A stretch of DNA of 64,000 nt from Spirochaetia bacterium (GTDB taxonomy: Bacteria; Spirochaetota; Spirochaetia; SZUA-6; Bin103): assembly GCA_965198005.1 (NCBI GenBank), contig CBDAOI010000003.1:736001-800000 (forward strand), given 5' to 3'. The position numbers were made by a program, and so were the translations under genes. The notes under the pieces were generated by a model that saw nothing but the letters and a program-made list of their open reading frames with translations, ran no database searches and was not told the origin of the DNA. Below, one piece after another: positions 19,827-63,266 of the stretch. Positions within the stretch are counted from its first letter, which is position 1, and every line of letters starts with the position of its first letter.

Positions 19827-20220
19827 GGGCCGCGGGTACCGCTACACGGGCAAGATCTCTACACTGCCGAGCAGGCCGCCGAGTTGCTGCGGGTGACCAA
19901 CAGCACCGTGATCCGCTGGGTGGAAGCCGGTATGCTCCGCGGTACGCAGGTCACGGCGGGGGCACCTTGGAGGATCGTTGTCACCGACGAGGACATCGCC
20001 AAGCTCAAGCCTACCGATCACACCGACGGATGGCTCTCGCTGAAGGCGGCAGCGGCGGCGCTGGGCACCAGCCCGAATGCCGTTTTGCAAAGAGTCAGTC
20101 GCGGCGAGCTCGAGGGTGGTCGGGTTCGCTCAGGCCGTCGCATCGGTTGGAGAATTCGTTTACCAGAAACGACTTACGCAGATCAACCGGCGCTCTTTTC
20201 AAGCTCCGATGACCAACTTA
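19827..20220 (+). pseudogene. 3' fragment of the serine recombinase gene (HTH region)
   Basis: Near-identical to ~23451-23882 but without the 38-bp duplication. Confidence 0.88.
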
Positions 20221-21632: not shown

Positions 21633-23887
21633 ATGACGGCTGATGGGATCACCACGGGTCAGCGTAACCGTCTGGCGGTCGTCTACATCCGTCAGTCCTC
21701 GCCGCAACAGATAGCGCGCAACCCGGAGAGTCAGAGACGGCAGCGTGGGTTTGTGAACCGGGCGGTGCAGTTGGGCTGGCCGGCAAACCGTATCCGCGTC
21801 ATCGACGAGGATATGGGGCAGTCGGGGGCGCGATCGGGCAGCCGCCAGGGCTTCCAGCAGATGGTGGCCATGGCGGCGCTGGGCCGTATCGGGATCATTC
21901 TCGCTTTGGAAGTCTCGCGGCTGGCCCGCAGCAATGGCGATTGGTACCAGCTGCTGGACGTCTGTGCGGTCGCAGGTATCCTCATTGCCGATGAGGAAGG
22001 GCTCTACGATCCGGCGGCCTACAACGATCGGCTCCTGCTGGGGTTGAAGGGTACGATGAGCGAGGCCGAGTTGCACCTGATCAAACAGCGGCTGGTGGAA
22101 GGGATGCGGGCGAAGGCCCGGCGAGGCGAACTACGCCGCCGTCTGCCAGCGGGGTTTGTATGGGATCAGGCCGGACGGATTGTCAAAGATCCCAACGAGC
22201 AGGTGGTAGCGGCGATTGACGAGGTGTTCCATCGCTTTCGCAGAGTGGGCACGATTGGTCAAACGCAGCTGTCGCTGATCGACCAAGGGGTGGAGATTCC
22301 GGCACGGACCGAGCAAGGGACGTTGCGCTGGAGCCGCCCCAGTATTGGAGCGGTGGCACGGATGCTGAAGAATCCCACCTACGCCGGAGCCTACGTCTAT
22401 GGTCGCCGCCAGGTAGAGGAGCAACTGGACGGGTCTCTGAAGCCGCAGAAGCGAATGCGGGAAGTCGAGCCGCAGCGGTGGCACGCATTGCTGAAGGATC
22501 ACCACGAGGGCTACCTGAGTTGGGAGCAGTTCGAACACAACCAGAGGCAGATCAGGAGCAACCGGCGGGCGCCCGGCGAGGCTGGCGCACCCCGTGAAGG
22601 CGATGGGCTGCTGCAGGGCTTGGTGCTCTGTGGGATCTGCGGCAGGCGACTGCACATCGCCTACGGCAAGGGCTCCAAGCCATCGCGTTATTGGTGTGTC
22701 CAAGCTCGCCGCCAGAGTGGTGAGCCGACCTGCCAGAGCTTCGGGGCGCGGCGGCTCGAGCAGGCCGTCGAGCGGTTATTGCTGCAGTGTCTGTCGCCGT
22801 TAGGAATGCAGGCGATGTTGGAGGCGGCCCGGCTGCATGCCGAGGATGCTCAGCTGGAGCAGCAACGCCACGAACAGCGACTGGAGCGGGCACGCTACGA
22901 GGTGAGCCTGGCCCGCCGCCAATACGATGCGGTGGACCCTGAGAATCGGCTCGTGGCTCGGGAGTTGGAGAGCCGATATGAGAAGGCGCTATGTACCGAG
23001 CGCGATGTTCAAGCCGACGTCATGCGCGAGCTCGACAGGCTCCAGGAGCCCCTCAGCGCCGAACAGGAGCAGCTTCTGGAGCGCTACAGCGAGGACCTCC
23101 AGCCGTTGTGGAAGGCACCCACCACAGGAGCTGCCGATCGCAAGCGTATCGTGCGCTGCTTGATCGAGGCGGTGGTGGTCAGCGCATCTCGCGACAGCTC
23201 GACGCTCACGGCAAAGGTTCACTGGAAGGGCGGGTAGGTCACAGCGATCGAGCTGCCCAAAGGCCGCCCGGGCGTACATCGCTATGTCTCGCCTCCGGAG
23301 TTGGTGGAGCTCATTAGGACACTGGCAGCCGAGTTCACTGACGCCCAGATCGCGAGGATCCTAAGGCGCAAGAAACTGCTCACGCCCAAGGGCCACTCCT
23401 TCATGGCCTATCACGTGGCCAACGTGCGCCTCAAGCACGGTATTGCACCGGGGCCGCGGGTACCGCTACACGGGCAAGATCTCTACACTGCCGAGCAGGC
23501 CGCAGAGTTGCTGGGGGTGACCAACAGCACCGTGATCCGCTGGGTGGAAGCCGGTATGCTCCGCGGTACGCAGGTCACGGCGGGGGCACCGGTATGCTCC
23601 GCGGTACGCAGGTCACGGCGGGGGCACCTTGGAGGATCGTTGTCACCGACGAGGACATCGCCAAGCTCAAGCCTACCGATCACACCGACGGATGGCTCTC
23701 GCTGAAGGCGGCAGCGGCGGCGCTGGGCACCAGCCCGAATGCCGTTTTGCAAAGAGTCAGTCGCGGCGAGCTCGAGGGTGCTCGGGTTCGCTCAGGCCGT
23801 CGCATCGGTTGGAGAATTCGTTTACCAGAAACGACTTACGCAGATCAACCGGCGCTCTTTTCAAGCTCCGATGACCAACTTATGTGA
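21633..23887 (+). pseudogene. Large serine recombinase (resolvase + recombinase + Zn ribbon + HTH) with in-frame TAG at 23235-23237 and a frameshifting 38-bp duplication
   Basis: YIRQS, SRLARS, LLQGLVLCGICG motifs; continuation in ORFs 23301-23705 and 23594-23887. Confidence 0.88.
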
Positions 23888-23909: not shown

Positions 23910-24335
23910 TGTCCGTGCTGCGGCTCAGAGATGAGGGTGATTGCCCTCATTCACGACCCGGTGGAGATCAAGCGCATCGTTGACCATCTAATCAAAAGTG
24001 GCAGAGCGCCTCCAGGGCTGAAGGTGTCTTGAGTGAGTTGAGCTTCGACATCCTCGCTGCGCCCCCTCTCTGGCCTTAGCGCCCGCGAAAGCTGCCCTCC
24101 GTCTTTCCAGTCAGCTCACCTGCAGCGGTTGCAGAACACACCAGTTGACAGCTTTGGCGCTTTCACCTAAGGTCGGAGCGTTCTGGTGGGGGGCCGAGAT
24201 GAGGGCAGAGATGGGTATTGACAGATCGACAGCTTGGGCCCATGGTTCACCCATGTTGAGAGTTGATGCGGGGGGAGTGGAATCTGCCAGGGCGCGCTCG
24301 TCCGATCCCGCAGGCTCTGTCGGGGCCAACTTGCC
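23910..24335 (+). mobile_element. 3' remnant of IS91/ISCR-like element
   Basis: 23910-24032 translates CPCCGSEMRVIALIHDPVEIKRIVDHL...RAPP, typical of IS91-family C-termini; downstream sequence is repeated at 31931-32056. Confidence 0.7.
24218..24246 (+). promoter_or_regulatory. Candidate sigma70 promoter, second copy 31940-31968
   Basis: TTGACA-17 nt-CATGGT; the -10 box is a weak match. Confidence 0.4.
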
Positions 24336-24354
24336 AGCCTGCAGCAGCTCCCGT

Positions 24355-24775
24355 CCTTGTTCGCGGGTTTCCCAGGTACTATGGGCCTGTCCGACTTCCC
24401 AGCTCCGTTCATCGTCGGCGTACGTCCTTGGACTTCCCGACACGGCCTGCGACGCCATCCGCCACAGGCGAAGCTGGGATCTCCCGGCTCCCGCGCAAGG
24501 TGTTTCCGTACGTGCCCGGGGTCTTGGACCGCGCAGGGTCCCGTGGCGCCTCGCGATATCGGCGCCCCGGGTGTGGCCTTCCGCATCCTCCTACGGCGTC
24601 GGCACCCCAAAGTAATTCCTTTCGCGGCTCGATACCCGGCCCGCACGTACCCCTGTCAACGCTTCACCCCCGCCCTCGCGGGCGACGGCGCATGACTCGG
24701 GGCCGCCGTGGGTCGCTAACCCTTCGACGTATGACTCTTCCATTCACAACACCCTGCCGGTTTGTGCCGGCGCAC
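24355..24775 (-). ncRNA. Group II intron 5' remnant (domain I to about domain III), no ORF, no domain V/VI
   Basis: Minus strand starts GTGCG at 24775; intron-like segments GAAGCGTTGACAGGGG, AAGTCGGACAGGCCCATAGTACC; distal part parallels 56486-56642. Confidence 0.82.
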
Positions 24776-24861
24776 AGGAGGTTCGAATGATACTCAAAGA
24801 ACCGCACGCGCGCGCGGCGTGAGCCGGGGTGAACCCGCTGAGTCACACGCCGCGCGCTTTT
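24776..24861 (+). promoter_or_regulatory. RBS + leader ORF MILKEPHARAA* (24787-24822) + 12-bp GC stem + TTTT; attenuator-like
   Basis: AGGAGG; stem 24810-24821 / 24846-24857; four copies in the window. Confidence 0.6.
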
Positions 24862-24967
24862 AGTGAATTTGACTCTGACTGGCCGTCCGCGTTGCGGGCA
24901 TGAGAGTAGCCAGGGAGCGGTAATCCGCTACGCAATACTCTCGAAAAATCTACATACGGAGCTACGT

Positions 24968-26791
24968 ATGATTACTGTACAAATTACAATCATAAGGACC
25001 TTCGCGTTTGCGTTGGTCCTGGTCATGACCGCAACCGGCCTCTGGGCGGGTGGCGCAGAGGAGGAGCCGACAGCCGCCGCCGACAAGAGGTACGTGACCG
25101 ACCCCACCACCGGCAAGGCGGTGACCGCACCGGAGTATGGCGGGACATTGACCCAGGTCCTGAAATGGGGCGATGTCGACTTTCGACCGGATGCCTATAT
25201 TGGCGGTAATTTATCGTTACTCATCATCAGTGGCGTTCTAGAGAAGCTGGCCATGGTGGACTGGGCAATAGATAGGGACATATATCCTTTTTTCGGCGGC
25301 TACATGGCGCCTGTATTCGCCCTGACGGGGGCGCTGGCGGAAAGCTGGGAACAGCGTGATGACACAACTTATATCTTACACATCCGCCAGGGCGTTCACT
25401 GGCATGATAAGCCGCCGGTGAACGGGCGTGAGCTAACTGCCAAGGATGTAGAACATTCCTTTCACCGCATGTTGGGAAATAAATTGACAGGGACCGAGTT
25501 CAGTGAAGCCGAACCTTCCCCAGGGGGAGGTCACCTCGTAGCTTTGCCTTGGGAATCGGTAGAGGCCACCGACAAGTGGACGGTTGTTATGAAGCTGAAG
25601 GAGCCAAAAATCCTTGCCCTGGGTTATATCTTGGACTGGTTCAGTATGGTTATACAGCCCCCCGAGCTACTCGAGGAATACGGGGACGATTGGGATTGGC
25701 AGAATGTGGTCGGCACCGGGCCCTATATGATAACTGACTTGGTCCCGGTCAGCTCTGTGACCTGGACCAAGAATCCCAACTACTGGGGCTTCGACGAAAA
25801 ATACCCGGAGAACCGCCTGCCCTATATTGACACGTTAAAGGGACTTGTTATCATGGAAGTGGGCACATTTCTGGCGGGACTGCGCACGGGTAAGATCGAT
25901 TTCATAGGTTGGCCGGGCTCCTCTCAATTAAACGCTATAGACCAGGCAGAGAGCCTCATGCGGACCAACCCCGAACTCGTACTCCACACGTGGTCAGAAC
26001 GGTCGAATGCTGTTAGCGCGTTGAACCAGCGCCAGGCGCCCTATGACGACATCCGGGTGCGCCGCGCAATGCAGATGGCACTGGACCTCGAGACAATTAA
26101 CAATACCTACTTTAAGGGTTATGCAGAAACGTTACCTCGGGGGATGGTAGGCCTGGAATTCAAGGGGTATCACGTCCCATTTGAAGAGTGGCCCGAAGAG
26201 ATCAAGGGATACTATACCTATGACCCAGCAGGGGCCGAGAAGCTGCTTGATGAGGCTGGGCTTCCGCGTGGCGCCGACGGCATTAGATTCAAGACCACGT
26301 ACCTGCACCACCCGCGGCGTGATGTGAGCCTCACAGAATTACTGGCAGCACACTGGCGTGACATTGGCGTTGATGTGGTTATTGACACACCTAGCGGTGC
26401 AGAATTTAATACTAGAGTGAAAGTTGGAGATTTTGGTTTGTCCACGGATGTTGGGGGCGTCAAGGCTGATCCATTTTGGCAAGTCGGTAAGTTTCTCTCG
26501 GGCTCTGGAACGAACAGAGCTGGACTCTCCGACGCGCAATATGACGCCCTGTATGAAGCCGCCCCGGTGGCTACCACCATGGAGGAGCACGTGAGGCTGA
26601 TTAAAGAGATGGACTGGCGCATCATAGAGCAGCACTGGATGATCTGGGGGCCTTTGGCCCCAGCGTTTACCGTGCACCAGCCGTGGGTGATAGGTTATAA
26701 CGCCGAAGGCGGCTTTGGAGGAATGCAAAACCATGTTGTCTTCTCCCGCCTCTGGATTGATAGTGAGCTGAAGGAAGCAATGGGTCATTAA
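24968..26791 (+). CDS. ABC substrate-binding protein family 5 (SBP5)
   Basis: Signal peptide, PEYGGT, GTGPY, DDIRVRRA, RLWID. Confidence 0.93.
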   Translation: MITVQITIIRTFAFALVLVMTATGLWAGGAEEEPTAAADKRYVTDPTTGKAVTAPEYGGTLTQVLKWGDVDFRPDAYIGGNLSLLIISGVLEKLAMVDWAIDRDIYPFFGGYMAPVFALTGALAESWEQRDDTTYILHIRQGVHWHDKPPVNGRELTAKDVEHSFHRMLGNKLTGTEFSEAEPSPGGGHLVALPWESVEATDKWTVVMKLKEPKILALGYILDWFSMVIQPPELLEEYGDDWDWQNVVGTGPYMITDLVPVSSVTWTKNPNYWGFDEKYPENRLPYIDTLKGLVIMEVGTFLAGLRTGKIDFIGWPGSSQLNAIDQAESLMRTNPELVLHTWSERSNAVSALNQRQAPYDDIRVRRAMQMALDLETINNTYFKGYAETLPRGMVGLEFKGYHVPFEEWPEEIKGYYTYDPAGAEKLLDEAGLPRGADGIRFKTTYLHHPRRDVSLTELLAAHWRDIGVDVVIDTPSGAEFNTRVKVGDFGLSTDVGGVKADPFWQVGKFLSGSGTNRAGLSDAQYDALYEAAPVATTMEEHVRLIKEMDWRIIEQHWMIWGPLAPAFTVHQPWVIGYNAEGGFGGMQNHVVFSRLWIDSELKEAMGH

Positions 26792-31930: not shown

Positions 31931-32090
31931 AGATGGGTATTGACAGATCGACAGCTTGGGCCCATGGTTCACCCATGTTGAGAGTTGATGCGGGGGAGTG
32001 GAATCTGCCAGGGCGCGCTTGTCCGATCCCGCAGGCTCTGTCGGGGCCAACTTGCCCATCAGCGTCCAGATCGGATATAGTTCTTCCTAT
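31931..32090 (+). mobile_element. IS91-like 3' end with candidate oriIS terminus
   Basis: Repeat of 24209-24335 continuing to GTTCTTCCTATC, which resembles IS91/ISCR oriIS ends. Confidence 0.5.
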
Positions 32091-32157: not shown

Positions 32158-32243
32158 AGGAGGTGAAGATGATACTGAAAGAACCGCACGCGCGCGCGGC
32201 GTGAGCTGGGGTGAACCCGTTGAGTCACACGCCGCGCGCTTTT
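32158..32243 (+). promoter_or_regulatory. RBS + leader MILKEPHARAA* (32169-32204) + hairpin + TTTT
   Basis: Copy of 24776-24861 without the intron remnant. Confidence 0.6.
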
Positions 32244-32368
32244 AGTGAATTTGACTCAGACTGGCCGTCTGCGTTGGCGGGCGCGCCCGTGTTGCGGGCG
32301 TCAGAGTAGCCAGGGAGCGGCAATCCGCTCCGCAATACTCTCGAAAAAATCTACATACGGAGCTACGT

Positions 32369-44222: not shown

Positions 44223-45013
44223 TCAAAAAATAACCTCTACTCCTCTTTCTCGGAGCCCAGGGATATAGACTTCCTTCGACGTCTCGCTCAAGGGGTTACC
44301 AGACAAACTTACAGTGTCCCCCTCAGAAAGCCCGCCGTTCTCCACCAGTGGTGAGATGTCGCTTATTTGGTTAAACATAAGGTCGAGCTCGGTGAGATTA
44401 GTCAGGGAAGCTAGCGGTGCAATGTCGCTTATCTGGTTCAACGCAAGGTCGAGCTCAGTGAGGTTAGTCAGAGAAGCCAGTGGTGAGATGTCGCTTATCC
44501 GGTTCTTCCTAAGGGCGAGATTGGTGAGATTAGTCAGGGAAGCTAGCGGCGAGATGTCGCTTATCCGGTTGTCGTAAAGGCTGAGCGAGGTGAAGTTGGC
44601 GAGCGAAGCCAGTGGTGAGAGGTCGCTTATCCGTCCATAGTGGAAAACCAGCTCGGTAAGGTTACTCAAATACTCCAATCCGGCGAGGTCGGTGATCTTG
44701 ACTCTCGCATATCCCCTGCCTGATTCACGAAGCGAGGTGATGGTTTCCAGCTCCGAAACATGGATGGGACCTTGATGCTTCTGGATAGCTGCCCTTATGA
44801 CTCTCTCAAGAGCTTCGTCGGGGATGGTGACCCCTTCGCCCACTTCTTCTGTAGCACTAACAGGTTCTTCTGCAGTACACTAACAGGTTCTTCTGCAGTA
44901 CTTGCAGGTTCTTGTTCTTCTGCAGTATTTACAGGTTCTTCCGCAGGGCCACAGCCGGAAAGAGTGAATATCATTACGAAGACAACGAACAAAGGCAAGC
45001 ATTTCCTATCCAT
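44223..45013 (-). CDS. Leucine-rich-repeat (internalin-type) lipoprotein, frameshift in repeat linker near 44875
   Basis: Lipobox LSGC; TAEEP linker repeats; 22-aa repeats N-x-I-S-D-I-S-P-L-A-S-L-T-N-L. Confidence 0.82.
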
Positions 45014-45165: not shown

Positions 45166-46672
45166 CTAACGACCCATGGCGTTCTTCAGCTCACTATCGA
45201 TCCAGATCCGGGCTTGGACGGTATTACGTTCACCCCATCCCATTCCTGCTTCACCGAAATAACCCTCGACCCACGGCTGGCTCACGGAAAACTGAGGGGA
45301 CTTGGATTTGACTAGGCCCCAGTGCTCCCTCACAGTGATCTCATCGGCCTGTCTCAAAAGACTCCTATACTCCTCCAAGTCGGTAGTTTCTTGGGAGGCA
45401 AGATACAGGGCGTCCATACGCGGGTCCTTCGCTTTGTTGTAGCTCCAGCCAAAGTTTTGGCTAATCCCCTTCATGGGATTCCAAAAGGTGACGCTGCTGC
45501 CGCCATTATATCCCCCTTGCACTAGCGCCCACTCGTGCGTGTCCGCGCTATTGTCAGCGTTATGCTCAGCGATAGTCTGCGGGACAAGCTCGCCTTCAAC
45601 GCCAATGGCGTCGAAGTACCCCATGATGAGTTCTGCATAGTCTGTGGTGTACCTCTCAAAGGCCCTTACCTTGAGCTTGAATCTATAGCCGTCGGCGCCG
45701 CGGGGATACCCGGCCTCATCAAGGAGCTCCTCGGCCCTTTCGGGGTTATAGGTATATTCTTGCTTGACCTCCTCGGGCCACTCTTCATATGGCCAGGCCC
45801 ACCCTTCTTCAAGATCTTGTCTCATTAACCCGGCAGGCGCTGGATCTCCATAACCCTTAAAGAAGCTGGCGGAATTTGCCTCGCGGTCCACTGACATCTG
45901 CAGTGCCTTGCGCACAATGGGGTCGGCAGTGGGCGGCAAAGCCCAGTTGAAAACGAAAACGCCGGCCGGTGCCCCAAGAAAGGGCCACACCTCGATTTCA
46001 GGGTTGGTCCGCTCGAGGGTCTCCAAATCGTCGACATTGTATATCCAAGAGTCGCCGAAGTTACCCATCACATCAATCTTACCCGTGCGGAATGCTGCCA
46101 GACGTGCTGACATCTCTTTCATCATCAGGGACCTTAACTCGTCAATATAGGGTAGGCGGTTCTCCGGGAATTTTTCGTCGTAGCCCCAGTAGTTAGGATT
46201 CTTCTCCCAGGTTACAGAGCTGCCGTCCACGTACTCAGTCAGTCTCCAGGGCCCGGTGCCGACCAGGTTCCTCCAGTCCTTAGCGTCTCCGTACTTCTCG
46301 ATTACCTCGGGAGCGTACGCAACCCAGTAGGGGTTGAGCAGTTTCCCCAGCACATCGAGGGTAGGCTCCGTCAGCTTCATAACTACCGTCCATTTGTCGG
46401 TGGCCGTTACCGATTCGAGACCTACACCCCAGGTGGTAGCAAATGTATGGGCGCTAGGTCCGGCCTCGGTGAAATCGCCCAGACCGAAATAGCGGTGATA
46501 GTTGTGTTCGACGTCATAGGCATCGAACTCCCGACCGTTCACCGGCTCCTTATCGTCCCAGTAAACGCCCTTGCGGATGTTCCAGATGAACGTTGTGTCG
46601 TCGGGCATCGACCAGCTTTCAGCCAGAGCCCCTGTAGTCATCTCTGGGGTCACAATGGCGTAGTCTCTACCG
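45166..46672 (-). pseudogene. Family 5 SBP (SBP7) lacking signal peptide and N-terminal region
   Basis: Begins just before GALAESW; rest of frame open to RIWID...MGR. Confidence 0.85.
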
Positions 46673-46677
46673 TTCTG

Positions 46678-46752
46678 AAGCGCGCGGCGTGTGACTCACC
46701 GGGTTCACGCCGCGCGTGCGTGCGGTTCTTTGAGTATCACTTTGCACCTCCT
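46678..46752 (-). promoter_or_regulatory. RBS + leader (GTG)ILKEPHARAA* (46740-46705) + hairpin with shortened loop
   Basis: Third copy of the leader element. Confidence 0.6.
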
Positions 46753-47456
46753 TTCTTGAGCTATGCGGTGCCCTGACGGATGCCTGACGGAAGCTGTGTG
46801 TCTCGGGCCGGCGCTAGACGTAAGATGGGGTGCGCCGCGCGCAGCGCGTGTGCGCCCCATTAGGCAAACACCGACCGCTCGGCCAACGTCGGCACCTGCG
46901 TCGCGCCGCCTCGGGGGGCGGTGGTCGGCGGAGCAACGAATGTGATTGACCGGCAACGCCGGCGGTGGCTTTTGTCGGCAGTAAGTCGCGGGCGGGGATC
47001 CGGGACGGTTGCGGTGGTCAGTGAACGAAGGTGGACTCAGCCGGCACCACACGTAGCCGGCCGCTACCCCCTTGCTCACGGCGCAGGCGCCCACCTCGGC
47101 GCGTACGGGGCGGTCAGCCGGAGGGGGGGGGGTAGGCGAGGATAGGACGCGCCGGTTGCGTTGCCGCTAGGAGCGTGTCGGCTGCCGCCGACGAGGTCCG
47201 AGCGGATCGGCGGAATAGACCGCCCCGACGCCTCGGGCGTCGGTTTATGGGGCGCCAACCGGTGGCTGCGCTGAGTAGTGTCATCAGGCATCGTTCGCAT
47301 CCGTTCGTTACCCGAGACACTACCCTCGCACACCTGCGGCAACCACGTCAAGCGGCAATTGAAGGTTTTTTTCGATTTTTTGGATTTTTTGGTATCTTAT
47401 GTGCCAGCCAGGCCAACGACCCACCACAATTGAGTGTCGTCCTAAAGTGTGCAAGC

Positions 47457-55438: not shown

Positions 55439-56373
55439 GAGCGTACCGTAGCGCCTCCGGGGGCGCCTCGATCAAGCAATTTCGTAGTGGGTGGAGCGCG
55501 CTCCCGAGGGCTCCCGGCACCCCCCTGTTCCCGCGCTGCGGAAGCCTCGGTCGGGGCCACGATCCAGCTCTTGCCGGCCTGCTCCCAGCGCGCCACCAGC
55601 CGCGGGCGCGGCGGCCCCCACAGGTCGCTCACCGCCCCGGCCGCCGCCATGCGGTCCCCCAGCGTGGCGGCGGCCGTGATCGCCCGCAGCACGGCCACGA
55701 TCGCTGCGCCGCGGCTCTGCCAACTGCGCCCCCAGCGCGCGGCGCCGTCCCGCACGGTCATGGTCGCTACGCCCAACCGCGTCGCGATCCGTTCGCGGGC
55801 GCCCTCGTCCAACCCCGGACTCACCCCGGTCAGGCGTCCGGCCACCTCCAGGCGGCGTCCTTGGGTGCGCCGCCGGCGCCGCTCCGGAGAGCGGTGCCAC
55901 CAGTGCACCTCGGCTGGCCAGTGCTCCCCCCGCGCCGCATCCTGCGCCGCCGCAAACAGCGTCGCCTGCCACTGCGGTCGTCTGCCGGCTGCGTCCAACA
56001 GCAGGTCCCCACTTGCGCTACAGGGTGTCGCCGCAACGCGGCCATACGGGTAGTGTCCGGGCGGATACAGGGTGTAGCGCCGGCCTCCATGGACCCGGCA
56101 CCCCACCACCGCTACCGCGTGGCAGGGCCCGCTCTTGCGCTTTCGGTAATGATCGACGAAGATGGCACACGTCTGCTCCCCTGTGGCGTAGACGCACCGC
56201 GACGGCAGCACGGCGCGCAAGGTCCCGTCCTGATCCGCTTGGTAGTTCGTCGTCGCCAACGGGAGCGCGTGTGCCTCGGTTGCACCCTCGGACACTCGCT
56301 GCCTCTCGTGAGCCTTGGCGGGCGGTTGTCTCCCGCCCGCCAAGGCCGCCTGAAAAAGTGAAGCCCGCAGCAT
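55435..56373 (-). CDS. Hypothetical protein upstream of transposase
   Basis: 312-aa ORF whose stop overlaps the transposase start; contains Cys/His-rich region and YTLYPPGHYPYGR; start uncertain. Confidence 0.55.
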   Translation of the reverse strand: MLRASLFQAALAGGRQPPAKAHERQRVSEGATEAHALPLATTNYQADQDGTLRAVLPSRCVYATGEQTCAIFVDHYRKRKSGPCHAVAVVGCRVHGGRRYTLYPPGHYPYGRVAATPCSASGDLLLDAAGRRPQWQATLFAAAQDAARGEHWPAEVHWWHRSPERRRRRTQGRRLEVAGRLTGVSPGLDEGARERIATRLGVATMTVRDGAARWGRSWQSRGAAIVAVLRAITAAATLGDRMAAAGAVSDLWGPPRPRLVARWEQAGKSWIVAPTEASAAREQGGAGSPRERAPPTTKLLDRGAPGGATVRS

Positions 56374-56481
56374 TCACCTGCTGCGGGCTCCTCACTTTAT
56401 ACCCCTATCGCTTCTCCGCCTACGCCATCATCACCGCAACCGGTACCCCCTCACCGCGCCCTTGGGCGCGCAACGAAGAAC

Positions 56482-58169
56482 TCAGGCACGTGCGTACGTC
56501 ATATACCGGGACCTGGGAGGTCTTCGGGTCGTCCCGGCGAGTCGTCGCCGGGACCGCGGAGGGAAGGCGTGAGGCTGGACCAAAGATGAACGACCCGAAG
56601 GAGTCGGACATGGGCATAGTAGCGGCGAAGCCGGCGAACAAGGGAGCGCAAGCGACTGCGGAGACGGTGGAGCGAAGGCCCATGACCAACGGGAATTCGC
56701 AAGGTCAAAGCACGGGCCGGACGCAGAGTCGGGCAACCGTGACACAGGCGGCCGAGCGGATACGGCAATTCGTAAAGAGAGAACCGCAGGAGAAACTCAC
56801 TGCGCTGCTGCACCACGTGACGCCGGAAGCGCTGCGGGTGGCCTATTACGCGCTGAAGCGTGAAGCGGCCCCGGGGGTGGACGGGATGACGTGGCGGGAG
56901 TACGAGACGGGGTTGGAAGTGCGTTTGCACGACCTGCACCGGCGAGTACACACAGGAGCGTACCGAGCGACCCCGGTACGGCGGGTCAACATCGACAAGC
57001 CGGACGGAGGCACACGACCGCTGGGGGTGGCCGCGCTGGAGGACAAGATCGTCCAGAAGGCCGTGGTGGATGTGATCCTGACACCGATCTATGAGGAGGA
57101 ATTTCTCGGGATCAGCTATGGGTTTCGACCGGGGCGAGGGGCACACGATGCGTTGGACGCACTGGCCTACGCCATCGAACGGCGCGAAGTGAACTGGATA
57201 TTGGACGCGGACATTCGCGCCTACTTCGACACGATCTCGCGGGACTGGTTGATCAGATTCCTGGAGCATCGGATTGGAGATCGGCGGGTGCTGCGGCTGA
57301 TAAAGAAGTGGCTGCGCGCTGGGGTACTGGAAGAAGGCCGACAGATCGACGCGGGGCGGGGTACAGCGCAAGGGTCGGTGATTTCACCGATGCTCGCGAA
57401 TATATACTTGCACTACGTGTTGGACCTGTGGGTCACCAAGAAGTGGCGGCCGCAGGAGGCGCGCGGAGACATGATCATAGTGCGCTACGCAGATGACTAT
57501 GTCGCCGGGTTCGAGCATCGTGACGATGCGGAACGCTTCCTGCGGGAACTGAAGGAGCGATTCAGAGGCTTCGAGCTGGAACTGAACGCCGACAAGACCC
57601 GACTCCTCGAGTTTGGACGGTATGCCGAAAGGAACCGCCGAGCACGTGGGGAAGGGCGACCGGAGACGTTCGACTTTCTGGGTTTCACGCATTATTGCAG
57701 GAAGGACAGGAAAGGACGCTTCGGGCTGGGGCGGAAGCCAATTCGGAAGCGGATGAATCGTACGCTGAAGAGGATCAAGATCGAACTCCGCAGACGCATG
57801 CATGATGACGTGATGGAAACCGGGCGCTGGCTGGGACGGGTACTGCGCGGATGGCTCAACTACTACGCGGTATGCGCGGATGGCTCAACTACTACGCGGT
57901 ACCCACCAGCTACCGCTACCTGCACCGATTCGTGTGGCGTCTGCGAGGAATCTGGGTAAAGATTCTACGCCGGAGGTCCCAGAAGGACCGATTCTCCTGG
58001 GCTTGGATGCTGGCGATCAGCATCGAGCTGTGGCCCCAACCCCGAATCGTACACCCATGGCCGGACCGGCGATTTGCCGTCAACCACCGAAGGTAGGAGC
58101 CGGATGGTTTAACGACCACGTCCGGATCTGTGCGGGGGGCGCCGGGTAACCGGCGTTCCTACCGCGAAC
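56482..58169 (+). mobile_element. 5'-truncated group II intron with RT ORF
   Basis: Domain V (GAGCCGGATG...CACGTCCGGATC, 58097-58128) and domain VI ending AC at ~58169; 5' side starts late in domain I. Confidence 0.85.
56739..58096 (+). pseudogene. ltrA: Group II intron reverse transcriptase/maturase, frameshifted by a 29-bp duplication; no endonuclease domain
   Basis: APGVDG, RPLG, SYGFRPGR, QGSVISP, YADD, FDFLGF, GWLNYY; start codon uncertain. Confidence 0.9.
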
Positions 58170-62402: not shown

Positions 62403-62879
62403 AGGCCGGAGTCCGCGCTTGACATGGTCAGGCGAGCCTGTGACGATAGGGAGTTCGGGGATCGAACGGATGCCGATGACGGGCCATGATGACAGCCAGC
62501 GCAGTGGCCGGTTGGCGATGACTTTCGGTGACCTCCGAGTCGTTGACAGGTTTCCGGCCGCGTGCGACGGTTCACCGCTCGGGGTTGGATGGATGAGCAT
62601 GATGCGCCACGACGACAGTCAGCGCAGTGACCGGCTGGCGGTGACGCAGCTGTCGGCGGGTTCACTCACTCACTCACTCACTCACTCGCTCGCTAGTCGC
62701 CCAGCCAACCGCGCGACAGCCGTTCGCTCGGCGCCGGTGCTGAGCGCGGCACCATCGATCGGTGTGGCGCACAGCCGCCACGCGTCCGCGCGTCTAGCGG
62801 CCGACCGGGTCGGCCGCAGCCTCCACCAGTCCACTGAGCGAGCGTTGCCGGCAACCCAGCTTCGAGTATCCAGCTCACC

Positions 62880-63082
62880 TCCCAGCTCCATTCATCATCG
62901 GCGAGCGTGCTTTGGCTTGCCGACGACACGGCCTGCAGCGCCATCCGCACGCACCCCGGTCAACGCTTCACCCTCGCTCTTGCGAGCGGCAGCGCATGAC
63001 TCGGCGCCGCCGCCGTGGGCCGCCAGCCCTTCGACGTATGACTCTTCCATTCACCACACCCTGCCGGTTTTTGCCGGTGCAC
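62880..63082 (-). ncRNA. Second, internally deleted group II intron 5' remnant
   Basis: Similar to 24398-24775 with about 180 bp (including EBS1) deleted; 5' end reads GTGCA. Confidence 0.75.
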
Positions 63083-63168
63083 AGGAGGCCCGAATGATAC
63101 TCAAAGAGCCGTAGGCGCGCGCGGCGTGAGCCGGGGCGAACCCGGGTGAGTCACACGCCGCGCGCTTT
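63083..63168 (+). promoter_or_regulatory. RBS + leader MILKEP* (63094-63114) + hairpin + TTTT
   Basis: Fourth copy of the leader element, His codon replaced by TAG. Confidence 0.6.
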
Positions 63169-63266
63169 TGGTGAACTTGACTCAGACTGGCCGCCTGCGT
63201 TGCGCGTGGCCAGGGAGCGGCAAGTCGCTCCGAAATACTCTCGAGACAACATTCAAGGAGACAAGG

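Follow-up and report, generated by a model that had tools for sequence, protein, structure and literature searches.

A group II intron remnant antisense to a Shine-Dalgarno-like site in a Spirochaetia genome, and relatives whose EBS1 resembles the Shine-Dalgarno sequence

Introduction

Group II introns, from which spliceosomal introns are presumed to descend, serve as programmable gene-targeting tools. For the bacterial introns, the passages on target choice in the review by Zimmerly and Semper distinguish three specificities, namely homing sites, positions after terminators and attC sites (Zimmerly and Semper 2015, PMC4424553). Here we analyse a stretch of 64,000 nucleotides (nt) from a Spirochaetia bacterium (contig CBDAOI010000003.1, positions 736,001 to 800,000 of the forward strand; "the window", to which plain coordinates refer), in which a truncated group II intron lies upstream of a transporter gene. 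The element is very probably the remnant of a mobile intron that was placed antisense at a Shine-Dalgarno (SD) sequence through pairing of its exon-binding site 1 (EBS1) with the intron-binding site 1 (IBS1) of the 5′ exon, by a targeting of SD complements that would be shared across its clade.

Among the described systems, class C (IIC) introns come closest in the logic of their targeting; they share the lack of an endonuclease domain, the generic and widespread target and the landing outside coding sequence. They recognise a DNA stem-loop together with a 3–4-nt IBS1, whereas here the SD complement is read by 5–8 nt of EBS1 pairing, and at 46 of 58 sites the 5′ exon is the start of a gene in antisense instead of a terminator or attC stem-loop. 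The present intron, which finds its best Rfam match in D1D4-6, is set apart from class C by this match and by its target, not by a phylogeny of reference intron-encoded proteins (IEPs). RmInt1 of Sinorhizobium meliloti (class D), which targets the multi-copy insertion sequence ISRm2011-2 and comes closest in its mode of life within one genome, is reportedly likewise endonuclease-minus, homes into a repeated element and has left many truncated copies. In our case, in contrast, the repeated target is the leader of transporter genes rather than a mobile element, the orientation is antisense to the reading direction of that element, and the IBS1 is an SD complement common to relatives that have no repeated target. 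The introns of Thermosynechococcus elongatus reportedly spread to many unrelated sites by diverging their EBS sequences, whereas here one conserved motif class is kept across phyla. High copy number per genome and diversification of target pairing, as described by Mohr et al. (2010, PMC2882425), are common to both. Group IIC-attC introns with outward promoters (PMC3001079) resemble our element in sitting just upstream of a gene, with expression through or out of the intron; unlike in those introns, a consensus scan of 24100–25000 found no promoter-like site on the gene-sense strand that could serve as an outward promoter of the remnant.

The known part of the present case is the standard group II machinery and the new part is the class of target. 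Targeting of the complement of a ribosome-binding site (RBS) is not described in the portion of the literature that was open to full-text searching; survey supplements, subscription journals and the curated intron database may hold it, and we put the chance that it was undescribed before at even or slightly better.

Results and Discussion

The window remnant and its junction

The remnant is 98.4 % identical, in an alignment over 439 nt, to the single complete copy in the genome that holds the window (G000; 4 contigs, 4.89 Mb), and its GTGCG boundary is common to all 10 aligned genomic copies. On the minus strand the junction reads ...cattcgaacctcct/GTGCGCCGGCAC... (in a longer read ...tcattcgaacctcct/GTGCGCCGGCACAAACCGGCAGGG...), with the first intron nucleotide, G1, at 24775 and a 5′ exon that terminates in CCTCCT. 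The nearest hairpin in the window ends 34 nt from this junction. The domain I match covers model positions 1–225 of 225 (24738 to 24519; gathering score 49), and GCCGACGCCGUAGGAGGAUGCGGAAGGC occupies a hairpin of that model with AGGAGG at 24592 to 24587; an energy-only fold of 24519–24775 (minus strand) also places GGAGGA in the loop of a 5-bp hairpin. The features at the junction are the following, where ORF stands for open reading frame.

24337–24775, minus strand: group II intron remnant, intron nt 1–439, from domain I through the first ~25 IEP codons
24771–24775, minus strand: 5′ boundary GTGCG (GUGYG consensus), splice junction between 24776 and 24775
24519–24738, minus strand: domain I, Rfam RF02005 (group-II-D1D4-6), 184.2 bits, E 6.5e-54
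24587–24592, minus strand: EBS1 AGGAGG, apical part of the hairpin GCCGACGCCGU-AGGAGG-AUGCGGAAGGC, from Rfam alignment, minimum-free-energy fold and covariation
24337–24412, minus strand: start of the IEP ORF (MNGAGKSDRPIVPGKPANKDG...), broken off after ~25 codons; 513 aa with RVT_1 in the full copy
24209–24336, plus strand: upstream module fused to intron nt 439 by a deletion, from paralogue comparison and contigs
24776–24781, plus strand: AGGAGG, SD-like hexamer of a leader mini-ORF, whose complement CCTCCT is the IBS1
24787–24822, plus strand: leader mini-ORF, ATG to TGA, 11 codons, MILKEPHARAA, beginning 5 nt past AGGAGG

As the remnant stops at intron nt 439 without reverse transcriptase (RT), domain V or domain VI, it is unable to splice. 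The complete copy (G000:C4:411884..409954, minus strand, 1931 nt) also begins with GTGCG and carries the 513-aa ORF from nt 364, in which a Pfam scan found RVT_1 (111.6 bits) and no endonuclease domain. This IEP matches solved group II RTs at E values of 1e-25 to 1e-29 and ends shortly after its maturase-like region, as do the IEPs of the sister-genus genome G020 and of the relative L118. At the 3′ end, a helix of domain VI with a bulged A followed by ...CUCCAAC can be read by eye. The 3′ exon, TCTTCTCTAGATTTACG..., equals the reverse complement of the flank that precedes the hexamer in intron-free leaders, ...cgtaaatctagagaaga/AGGAGG, so the insertion was precise and made without duplication. 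Relative to its relatives, the RT of the full copy is short of 30 aa between conserved blocks, and this copy is therefore probably disabled. On these matches, the window element is identified as the 5′ part of a group II intron without an endonuclease domain.

Pairing of EBS1 with the exon end

The AGGAGG loop pairs with the CCUCCU exon end in the window copy. Its identification as EBS1 is backed by three independent lines of comparative evidence. A second intron family in G000 has the loop GUACUC in the same RF02005 hairpin, and its exon ends GGGTAT, GGGTAC and GGGTGC are each able to pair with it. Relatives in a sister genus have the loop UGGAGG and exons that mostly end in CCTCCA, against AGGAGG and CCTCCT here, which is a compensatory change. 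Among 72 sites compared, loop and exon end are exactly complementary over at least 5 nt in 62 and over at least 6 nt in 54, compared with about 20 % for at least 6 nt when exons and loops are paired in shuffled order; the exact complement runs to 5–8 nt. An AAGGAG loop goes with a CTCCTT exon in 19 of 21 cases, CAGGAG with CTCCTG in five of seven and UAGGAG with CTCCT in 21 of 22. These comparisons show an EBS1 that mimics the SD sequence and whose pairing with the SD complement sets the junction. The original prediction, made from the letters of the window, had given the intron start GTGCG at 24775, the exon end CCTCCT and AGGAGG at 24776–24781 correctly to the base, and its placing of AGGAGG in the EBS1 loop is borne out by the Rfam hairpin, the second-family loop, the compensatory change in the sister genus and the complementarity at 72 sites.

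The second family of G000 is young, with about 13 copies of identical Rfam score (C4:168056 and C3:813829, for example), a 538-aa IEP and a start of GAGCG rather than GUGYG, and many of its 5′ exons share a repeated sequence. The window contains one RT ORF of this family, at 56013–57959 (plus strand), with no domain-I match nearby.

Relatives in other phyla

A protein-guided scan of one genome per species gave 543 relatives, of which the best 80 (IEP 60–79 % identical) were analysed; they come from metagenome-assembled genomes (MAGs) of Acidobacteriota, Planctomycetota, Gemmatimonadota, Ignavibacteriota, Methylomirabilota, Pseudomonadota and Myxococcota. Intron nt 1 was placed in them with a small nhmmer profile, and sites were compared at the 58 distinct ones with at least 60 nt of 5′ exon. 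CTCC falls within the last 8 nt of the 5′ exon at 49 of these, and at 46 a start codon on the antisense strand, 12–19 nt from the junction, opens an ORF (at least 50 codons, or running to the edge of the locus); among 483 other CTCCT sites in the same flanks, taken as a control, 94 (19.5 %) pass this test. The start codon is ATG in 42 of the 46 and stands 15–17 nt from the junction in 44. Seven of ten antisense ORFs scanned belong to ordinary and unrelated Pfam families (aldo-keto reductase, TrbL, amidase, two Peripla_BP_6, alpha/beta hydrolase, methyltransferase) and are matched from near the N-terminus onwards. At 30 of 39 sites, the proposed start is preceded by a stop codon in the same frame at a distance of no more than 53 codons. 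By a crude ORF-based classification, 22 of 37 sites are apparently operon-internal.

These sites show a clade, present in at least six phyla, whose EBS1 sequences are SD look-alikes (AGGAG, AAGGAG, CAGGAG, GGAGG, UGGAGG), and whose members lie antisense directly outside the SD in diverse genes, without disturbing SD, spacer or ATG. In an IEP tree of 69 rows, SD-type loops, scored with a loose regular expression, occupy the backbone (51 of 69), and non-SD loops are limited to a small number of derived groups, a single basal row and the outgroup.

Several loci of the clade have unusual arrangements. L096 and L133 appear to be twintrons: the 5′ region of one group II intron holds, after ...gagcccta, a second one that is a clade member with EBS1 UAGGGU. 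Head-to-tail tandem arrays without an exon between the introns are seen at L080 and L081 (both G020) and at L126, L135 and L115. In G020 there are five arrays spaced 2016 nt, with similar pairs in Acidobacteriota MAGs, and all six 3′ exons seen there begin with G, as the intron does. Such arrays would be explained if an intron homed again into the 5′ junction of a copy already in place; RT template switching is an alternative. The 11-locus subclade L148–L162 has the loop CUGACACAA, an apparent extra ~20 nt at the 5′ end and targets that are not SD-like; profile boundaries are poor in this group.

Filled and empty sites in the sister genus

The sister-genus intron is 87–88 % identical to the window intron over the first 421 nt. 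The intron is young in the genome G020, where, among the matches listed, 16 stand at 87 % identity with the same E-value, and it sits there at unrelated sites; the sister-genus sites end in CCTCC(A/G/T/C). Two sister-genus insertions were each compared with the orthologous sites in seven other species. Where the first is empty, ...ggcatggtctttcctcca/gtttcacacggcc... is the 16-nt spacer that separates a gene for an OppC-like permease from the gene that follows, an operon-internal RBS; the 3′ flank of the occupied genome is not collinear with the orthologues. The second comparison is clean on both sides, with ...cttcatgtcggacctcca/intron/gaggatctgc... facing ...ccgcca/gaggatctgc..., and the 7 orthologous sites are contiguous.

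At this second site (L077/L176) a fucosidase gene is interrupted in antisense, and the occupied sequence has TGGAGG where the seven orthologues have TGGCGG. The difference is synonymous (Arg) and betters the pairing with EBS1.

The interrupted leader and its copies in the genome

In the window, the intron interrupts a leader that is found in 78 copies in G000 (up to 7 substitutions allowed), mostly ahead of SBP_bac_5 genes, which encode solute-binding proteins (SBPs). After AGGAGG the mini-ORF reads ATGATACTCAAAGAACCGCACGCGCGCGCGGCGTGA, and its 3′ end forms the 5′ arm of a GC-rich hairpin. The start codon is ATG in 74 of the 78 copies, 41 encode the identical peptide MILKEPHARAA, and 73 have an ORF of at least 150 aa, mostly ~600 aa, within 450 nt downstream. 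Leader copies in the window, occupied and empty, and the associated features are the following.

24810–24861, plus strand: GC-rich hairpin followed by TTTT, terminator-like, overlapping the end of the mini-ORF
24968–26791, plus strand: ABC-transporter SBP gene, Pfam SBP_bac_5, 220.6 bits
62877–63082, minus strand: second intron remnant, nt 1–135 fused to nt 314–382 with the EBS1 region deleted, from alignment to the full copy
63083–63129, plus strand: second occupied leader, AGGAGG and a mini-ORF variant with an in-frame TAG (MILKEP*), read from the sequence
32158–32204, plus strand: intron-free leader (AGGAGG-tgaag-ATG...TGA), read from the sequence
46705–46752, minus strand: intron-free leader with a GTG start, plus-strand CCTCCT at 46747–46752, ahead of an SBP_bac_5 gene at 45166–46653

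The SBP gene has a GGAG of its own before its ATG at 24968, and the AGGAGG at 24776–24781, ~190 nt ahead of that gene, belongs to the mini-ORF instead. The leader occurs in 6 of 10 congeners besides G000 and was found in none of the five sister-genus genomes searched; an Rfam search at E up to 1 gave no family match. It extends over ~190 nt (24776–24967, 32158–32368, 63083–63266 and, on the minus strand, 46560–46752), in which the SD and the mini-ORF are followed by a strong hairpin and U-run over the stop codon and then by further conserved helices. A paralogous leader folds with z = -3.26. Judged by these elements, the leader looks like a translation-coupled attenuator; it is previously uncharacterised, and study of the remnant exposes the 78-copy set.

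The second junction in the window reads ...cattcgggcctcct/GTGCACCGG... at 63083/63082, the second remnant matches RF02005 with 57.1 bits at 63045 to 62929 (minus strand), and a copy identical to it lies at G000:C2:7728. A 24-nt pattern of junction plus leader occurs twice in the window, compared with 0.00 expected. Genome-wide, a fragment of the window intron has 23 BLAST matches in G000, and RF02005 has 37. Of the 78 leaders, 18 have an intron 5′ end directly against AGGAGG, and the junction nucleotide is the same in all of them. One of these 18 copies is full length and the other 17 are truncated or internally deleted at differing points, retaining from ~20 nt up to nt 1–1680; fragments without a 5′ end number only four in G000. 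Occupied and empty leaders are mixed within the same leader subfamilies. Pairwise comparison of the ten copies with at least 105 nt of intron gives median identities of 92 % (intron), 81 % (leader) and 71.5 % (600 nt of SBP gene), and the pair at 63082 and C2:7728 is the only one that is 100 % identical in intron, leader and gene. As the intron copies are more alike than the adjacent genes, they stem from repeated insertions and not from one duplicated accident, and these comparisons indicate that the insertions are younger than the SBP gene family and mostly independent. With one full-length copy that has an RT deletion and 17 truncated ones, the lineage is decaying in G000. The odd look of the segments upstream of the transporter genes results from their being intron debris. 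In four further genomes of the genus 14 junctions were examined, and every one of them lies in this leader.

At the window copy, the deletion that ended the intron joined it to the upstream module. In the empty paralogue the sequence of this module (31940–32060) lies ~100 nt ahead of the leader, together with a weak promoter-like TTGCCC-18-TATAGT at 32052–32081 (by consensus matching only), where the deletion junction of the occupied copy falls. Contigs of four metatranscriptome runs cover 24209–26500 and one of them bridges the deletion junction (24270–24604); these contigs are unstranded and carry no level, DNA carry-over is possible, and the gap in their cover before 24207 is uninformative. 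RNA-library contigs from empty paralogous sites depart from the window exactly at 24776, and paralogue contigs part from it at 24335 into CATCAGCGTCCAG..., as in the 32xxx copy.

Parts of the original prediction that concern the leader fared differently. The recurrence of the junction at 63082/63083 and the intron-free leaders at 32158 (plus strand) and 46752 (minus strand) were found as described. The reading of AGGAGG as an RBS stands insofar as the hexamer is SD-like and lies 5 nt before an 11-codon mini-ORF, and fails insofar as it was taken for the RBS of the SBP gene. The proposal that the 5′ part of the intron is kept as a working part of an SBP upstream module is not borne out, with only one pair truly co-duplicated. 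The remark that remnants keeping only the 5′ part are unlike the products of abortive reverse transcription, which would leave 3′ ends, was right; the remnants are deletions with differing breakpoints.

Evidence against the proposed targeting, and rival explanations

A number of observations weigh against the proposed targeting of SD complements. At the level of the clade, the control rate of 19.5 % marks the start-plus-ORF test as a lenient one, 12 of the 58 sites fail it and nine lack CTCC. The best 80 loci are mostly from Acidobacteriota MAGs and are mutually non-independent, the IEP tree comes from an unfinished quick search and is midpoint-rooted, and both an 11-member subclade and a few isolated introns differ in EBS1 as well as in target. 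A pairing of EBS2 with IBS2 was not seen: a comparison of exon positions -6 to -26 with the 50 nt before the EBS1 hairpin in 44 relatives gave only scattered 4–6-mers, and so did a comparison of the leader exon with intron nt 1–420, with no consistent position. In the sister genus, the clean second site falls within a gene for an alpha-L-fucosidase (229 bits), where an internal stretch that resembles an RBS passes the start test, and two more young insertions in G020 have no nearby start codon. What is recognised is therefore the motif, by pairing, and not RBS function, and part of the RBS enrichment may come from later selection. In G000, the domain V match of the full copy to RF00029 (C4:409954–410028) stands exactly at the 3′ end of that copy and reaches 37.1 bits, below the gathering score of 40; the role of the leader AGGAGG as an SD is read from sequence only (a putative RBS), and 13 of the 78 mini-ORFs are cut to 6 codons. 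G000 has 364 AGGAGG-N4-9-ATG sites, of which 56 are leaders, 15 of them occupied, and none of the 308 others is occupied. A factor beyond EBS1, or history, thus limits the intron to the leader in this genome. Transcription and splicing of the antisense-placed intron, finally, are putative, as the contigs are unstranded.

Against this background, the claim of the original prediction that the lineage homes to the template strand of RBSs holds at the clade level, where, as it had expected, the 5′ exons of homologues end in CTCC-type sequences (49/58) with a divergent start nearby (46/58). It does not hold within G000, where the intron is confined to one leader.

Of the rival explanations, the one that survives best is insertion at any accessible CTCC-type 5–8-mer, with an RBS excess that arose mainly by selection against other insertions. 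The young and identical copies of G020, one in the fucosidase gene and two without a nearby start codon, fit this explanation, as do complements of 5–8 nt with no pairing found beyond EBS1. Even the fucosidase site, however, has an ATG at RBS-like spacing (TGGAGGtccgacATG), and 44 of 46 start codons fall within a 3-nt window. Insertion at any such oligomer would moreover alter the cause of the enrichment, but neither the SD mimicry of EBS1 nor the placement of the surviving copies at RBSs, and we hold it to be possible though rather unlikely.

A leader-specific homing element, with an ordinary 20–35 bp homing site in which the overlap of IBS1 with the SD is incidental, would account for the occupation of 15 of 56 exact-motif leaders against 0 of 308 other sites and for the position of 14 out of 14 congener junctions. 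It would also fit a conserved ...GGTTCTTTGAGTATCAT... at -9 to -25 from the junction, which is the region where the IEPs of other group II introns contact DNA. The same lineage, however, occupies unrelated CCTCC(A/G/T/C) sites in the sister genus, in the searched genomes of which the leader was not found, and distant relatives in other phyla target SD complements with covarying EBS1. SD-type targeting is therefore older than the association with the leader, and the leader, found only within the genus, has a distribution that agrees with the split between leader-bound and other occurrences of the intron. We consider leader-specific homing improbable.

Slightly more doubtful still is an SD-like EBS1 kept for a role in RNA, in which pairing with the CCUCC tail of 16S rRNA would tether or protect the excised intron and the DNA target would be a by-product. 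EBS1 is complementary to the 16S 3′ end of G000 (...GGATCACCTCCTTT), and a paper on the association of introns with ribosomes (Contreras et al. 2013) is among the references of PMC4424553. The EBS1 nucleotide before GGAG (A, C, U or G), however, changes together with the exon nucleotide that follows CTCC (T, G, A or C, respectively), for which an invariant rRNA tail offers no explanation, and the single 16S gene found has its CCTCCT uninterrupted by an intron. The SD-mimic loop could nevertheless also pair with the 16S rRNA tail.

One chance insertion beside an SBP gene, later copied with the gene family, is the alternative that the original prediction had set against itself; the SBP operons are paralogous repeats and the 63082/C2:7728 pair is fully identical, but other pairs share 85–98 % identity in the intron against 53–79 % in the adjacent SBP coding sequence, subfamilies mix occupied and empty leaders, breakpoints differ and both junctions of the full copy are precise, so that this history is rejected as highly improbable.

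Proposed course of events

Under the targeting of SD complements, the intron would have retrohomed into the strand opposite the leader mini-ORF, at the outer edge of the SD hexamer, and a later deletion would have removed the 3′ three-quarters of the window intron. Integration would take the usual route for introns that lack an endonuclease, in which the RNA reverse-splices into DNA that is transiently single-stranded and replication supplies the primer. A comparison of cumulative GC skew is uninformative on this route: the direction of the inferred fork is shared by 14 of 18 occupied leaders and by 37 of 60 empty ones, a small difference in contigs that are pieces of replicons. The lineage of the genus may have narrowed to the leader, or been captured by it, in dozens of copies, so that the leader became its main or only sink. 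For the intron, the benefit would be a short and ubiquitous target outside coding sequence that the host is unable to remove by mutation, comparable to the terminators used by class C introns. The remnants would keep only their 5′ parts because deletions begin on the promoter side and cannot cross the SD without harm to the downstream unit. An antisense-placed intron cannot be spliced from the mRNA of the gene that it abuts, and its own expression needs antisense transcription.

Other repeats in the window

A direct repeat of 294 nt, 100 % identical and 3.6 kb apart, lies just upstream of the first remnant (19927–20220 and 23589–23882). A (GAGT)n microsatellite at ~62660–62700 (minus strand) adjoins the second remnant. 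Furthermore, a run of ~10 G is located at ~47125–47135 (plus strand), and 44345–44674 holds four tandem copies with a 66-nt period (reported as 132-nt units; 64–100 % identical) within a minus-strand ORF.

Conclusion

The window remnant itself is dead debris, and the main interest lies in the rule at the level of the clade. We lean, by a small margin, towards regarding the clade, with its SD-mimicking EBS1 and the RBS complement as natural landing site, as a fourth class of target specificity, directed at a motif that the host cannot lose. Such a loss-proof motif may lie behind the spread of the clade across phyla. How group II introns find safe sites in compact genomes is a central question, and the proposed targeting, if true, would give a retroelement a route to thousands of conserved non-coding landing sites in almost any bacterium. 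It would matter for genome annotation, too, as introns placed directly before gene starts or within operons may change expression.

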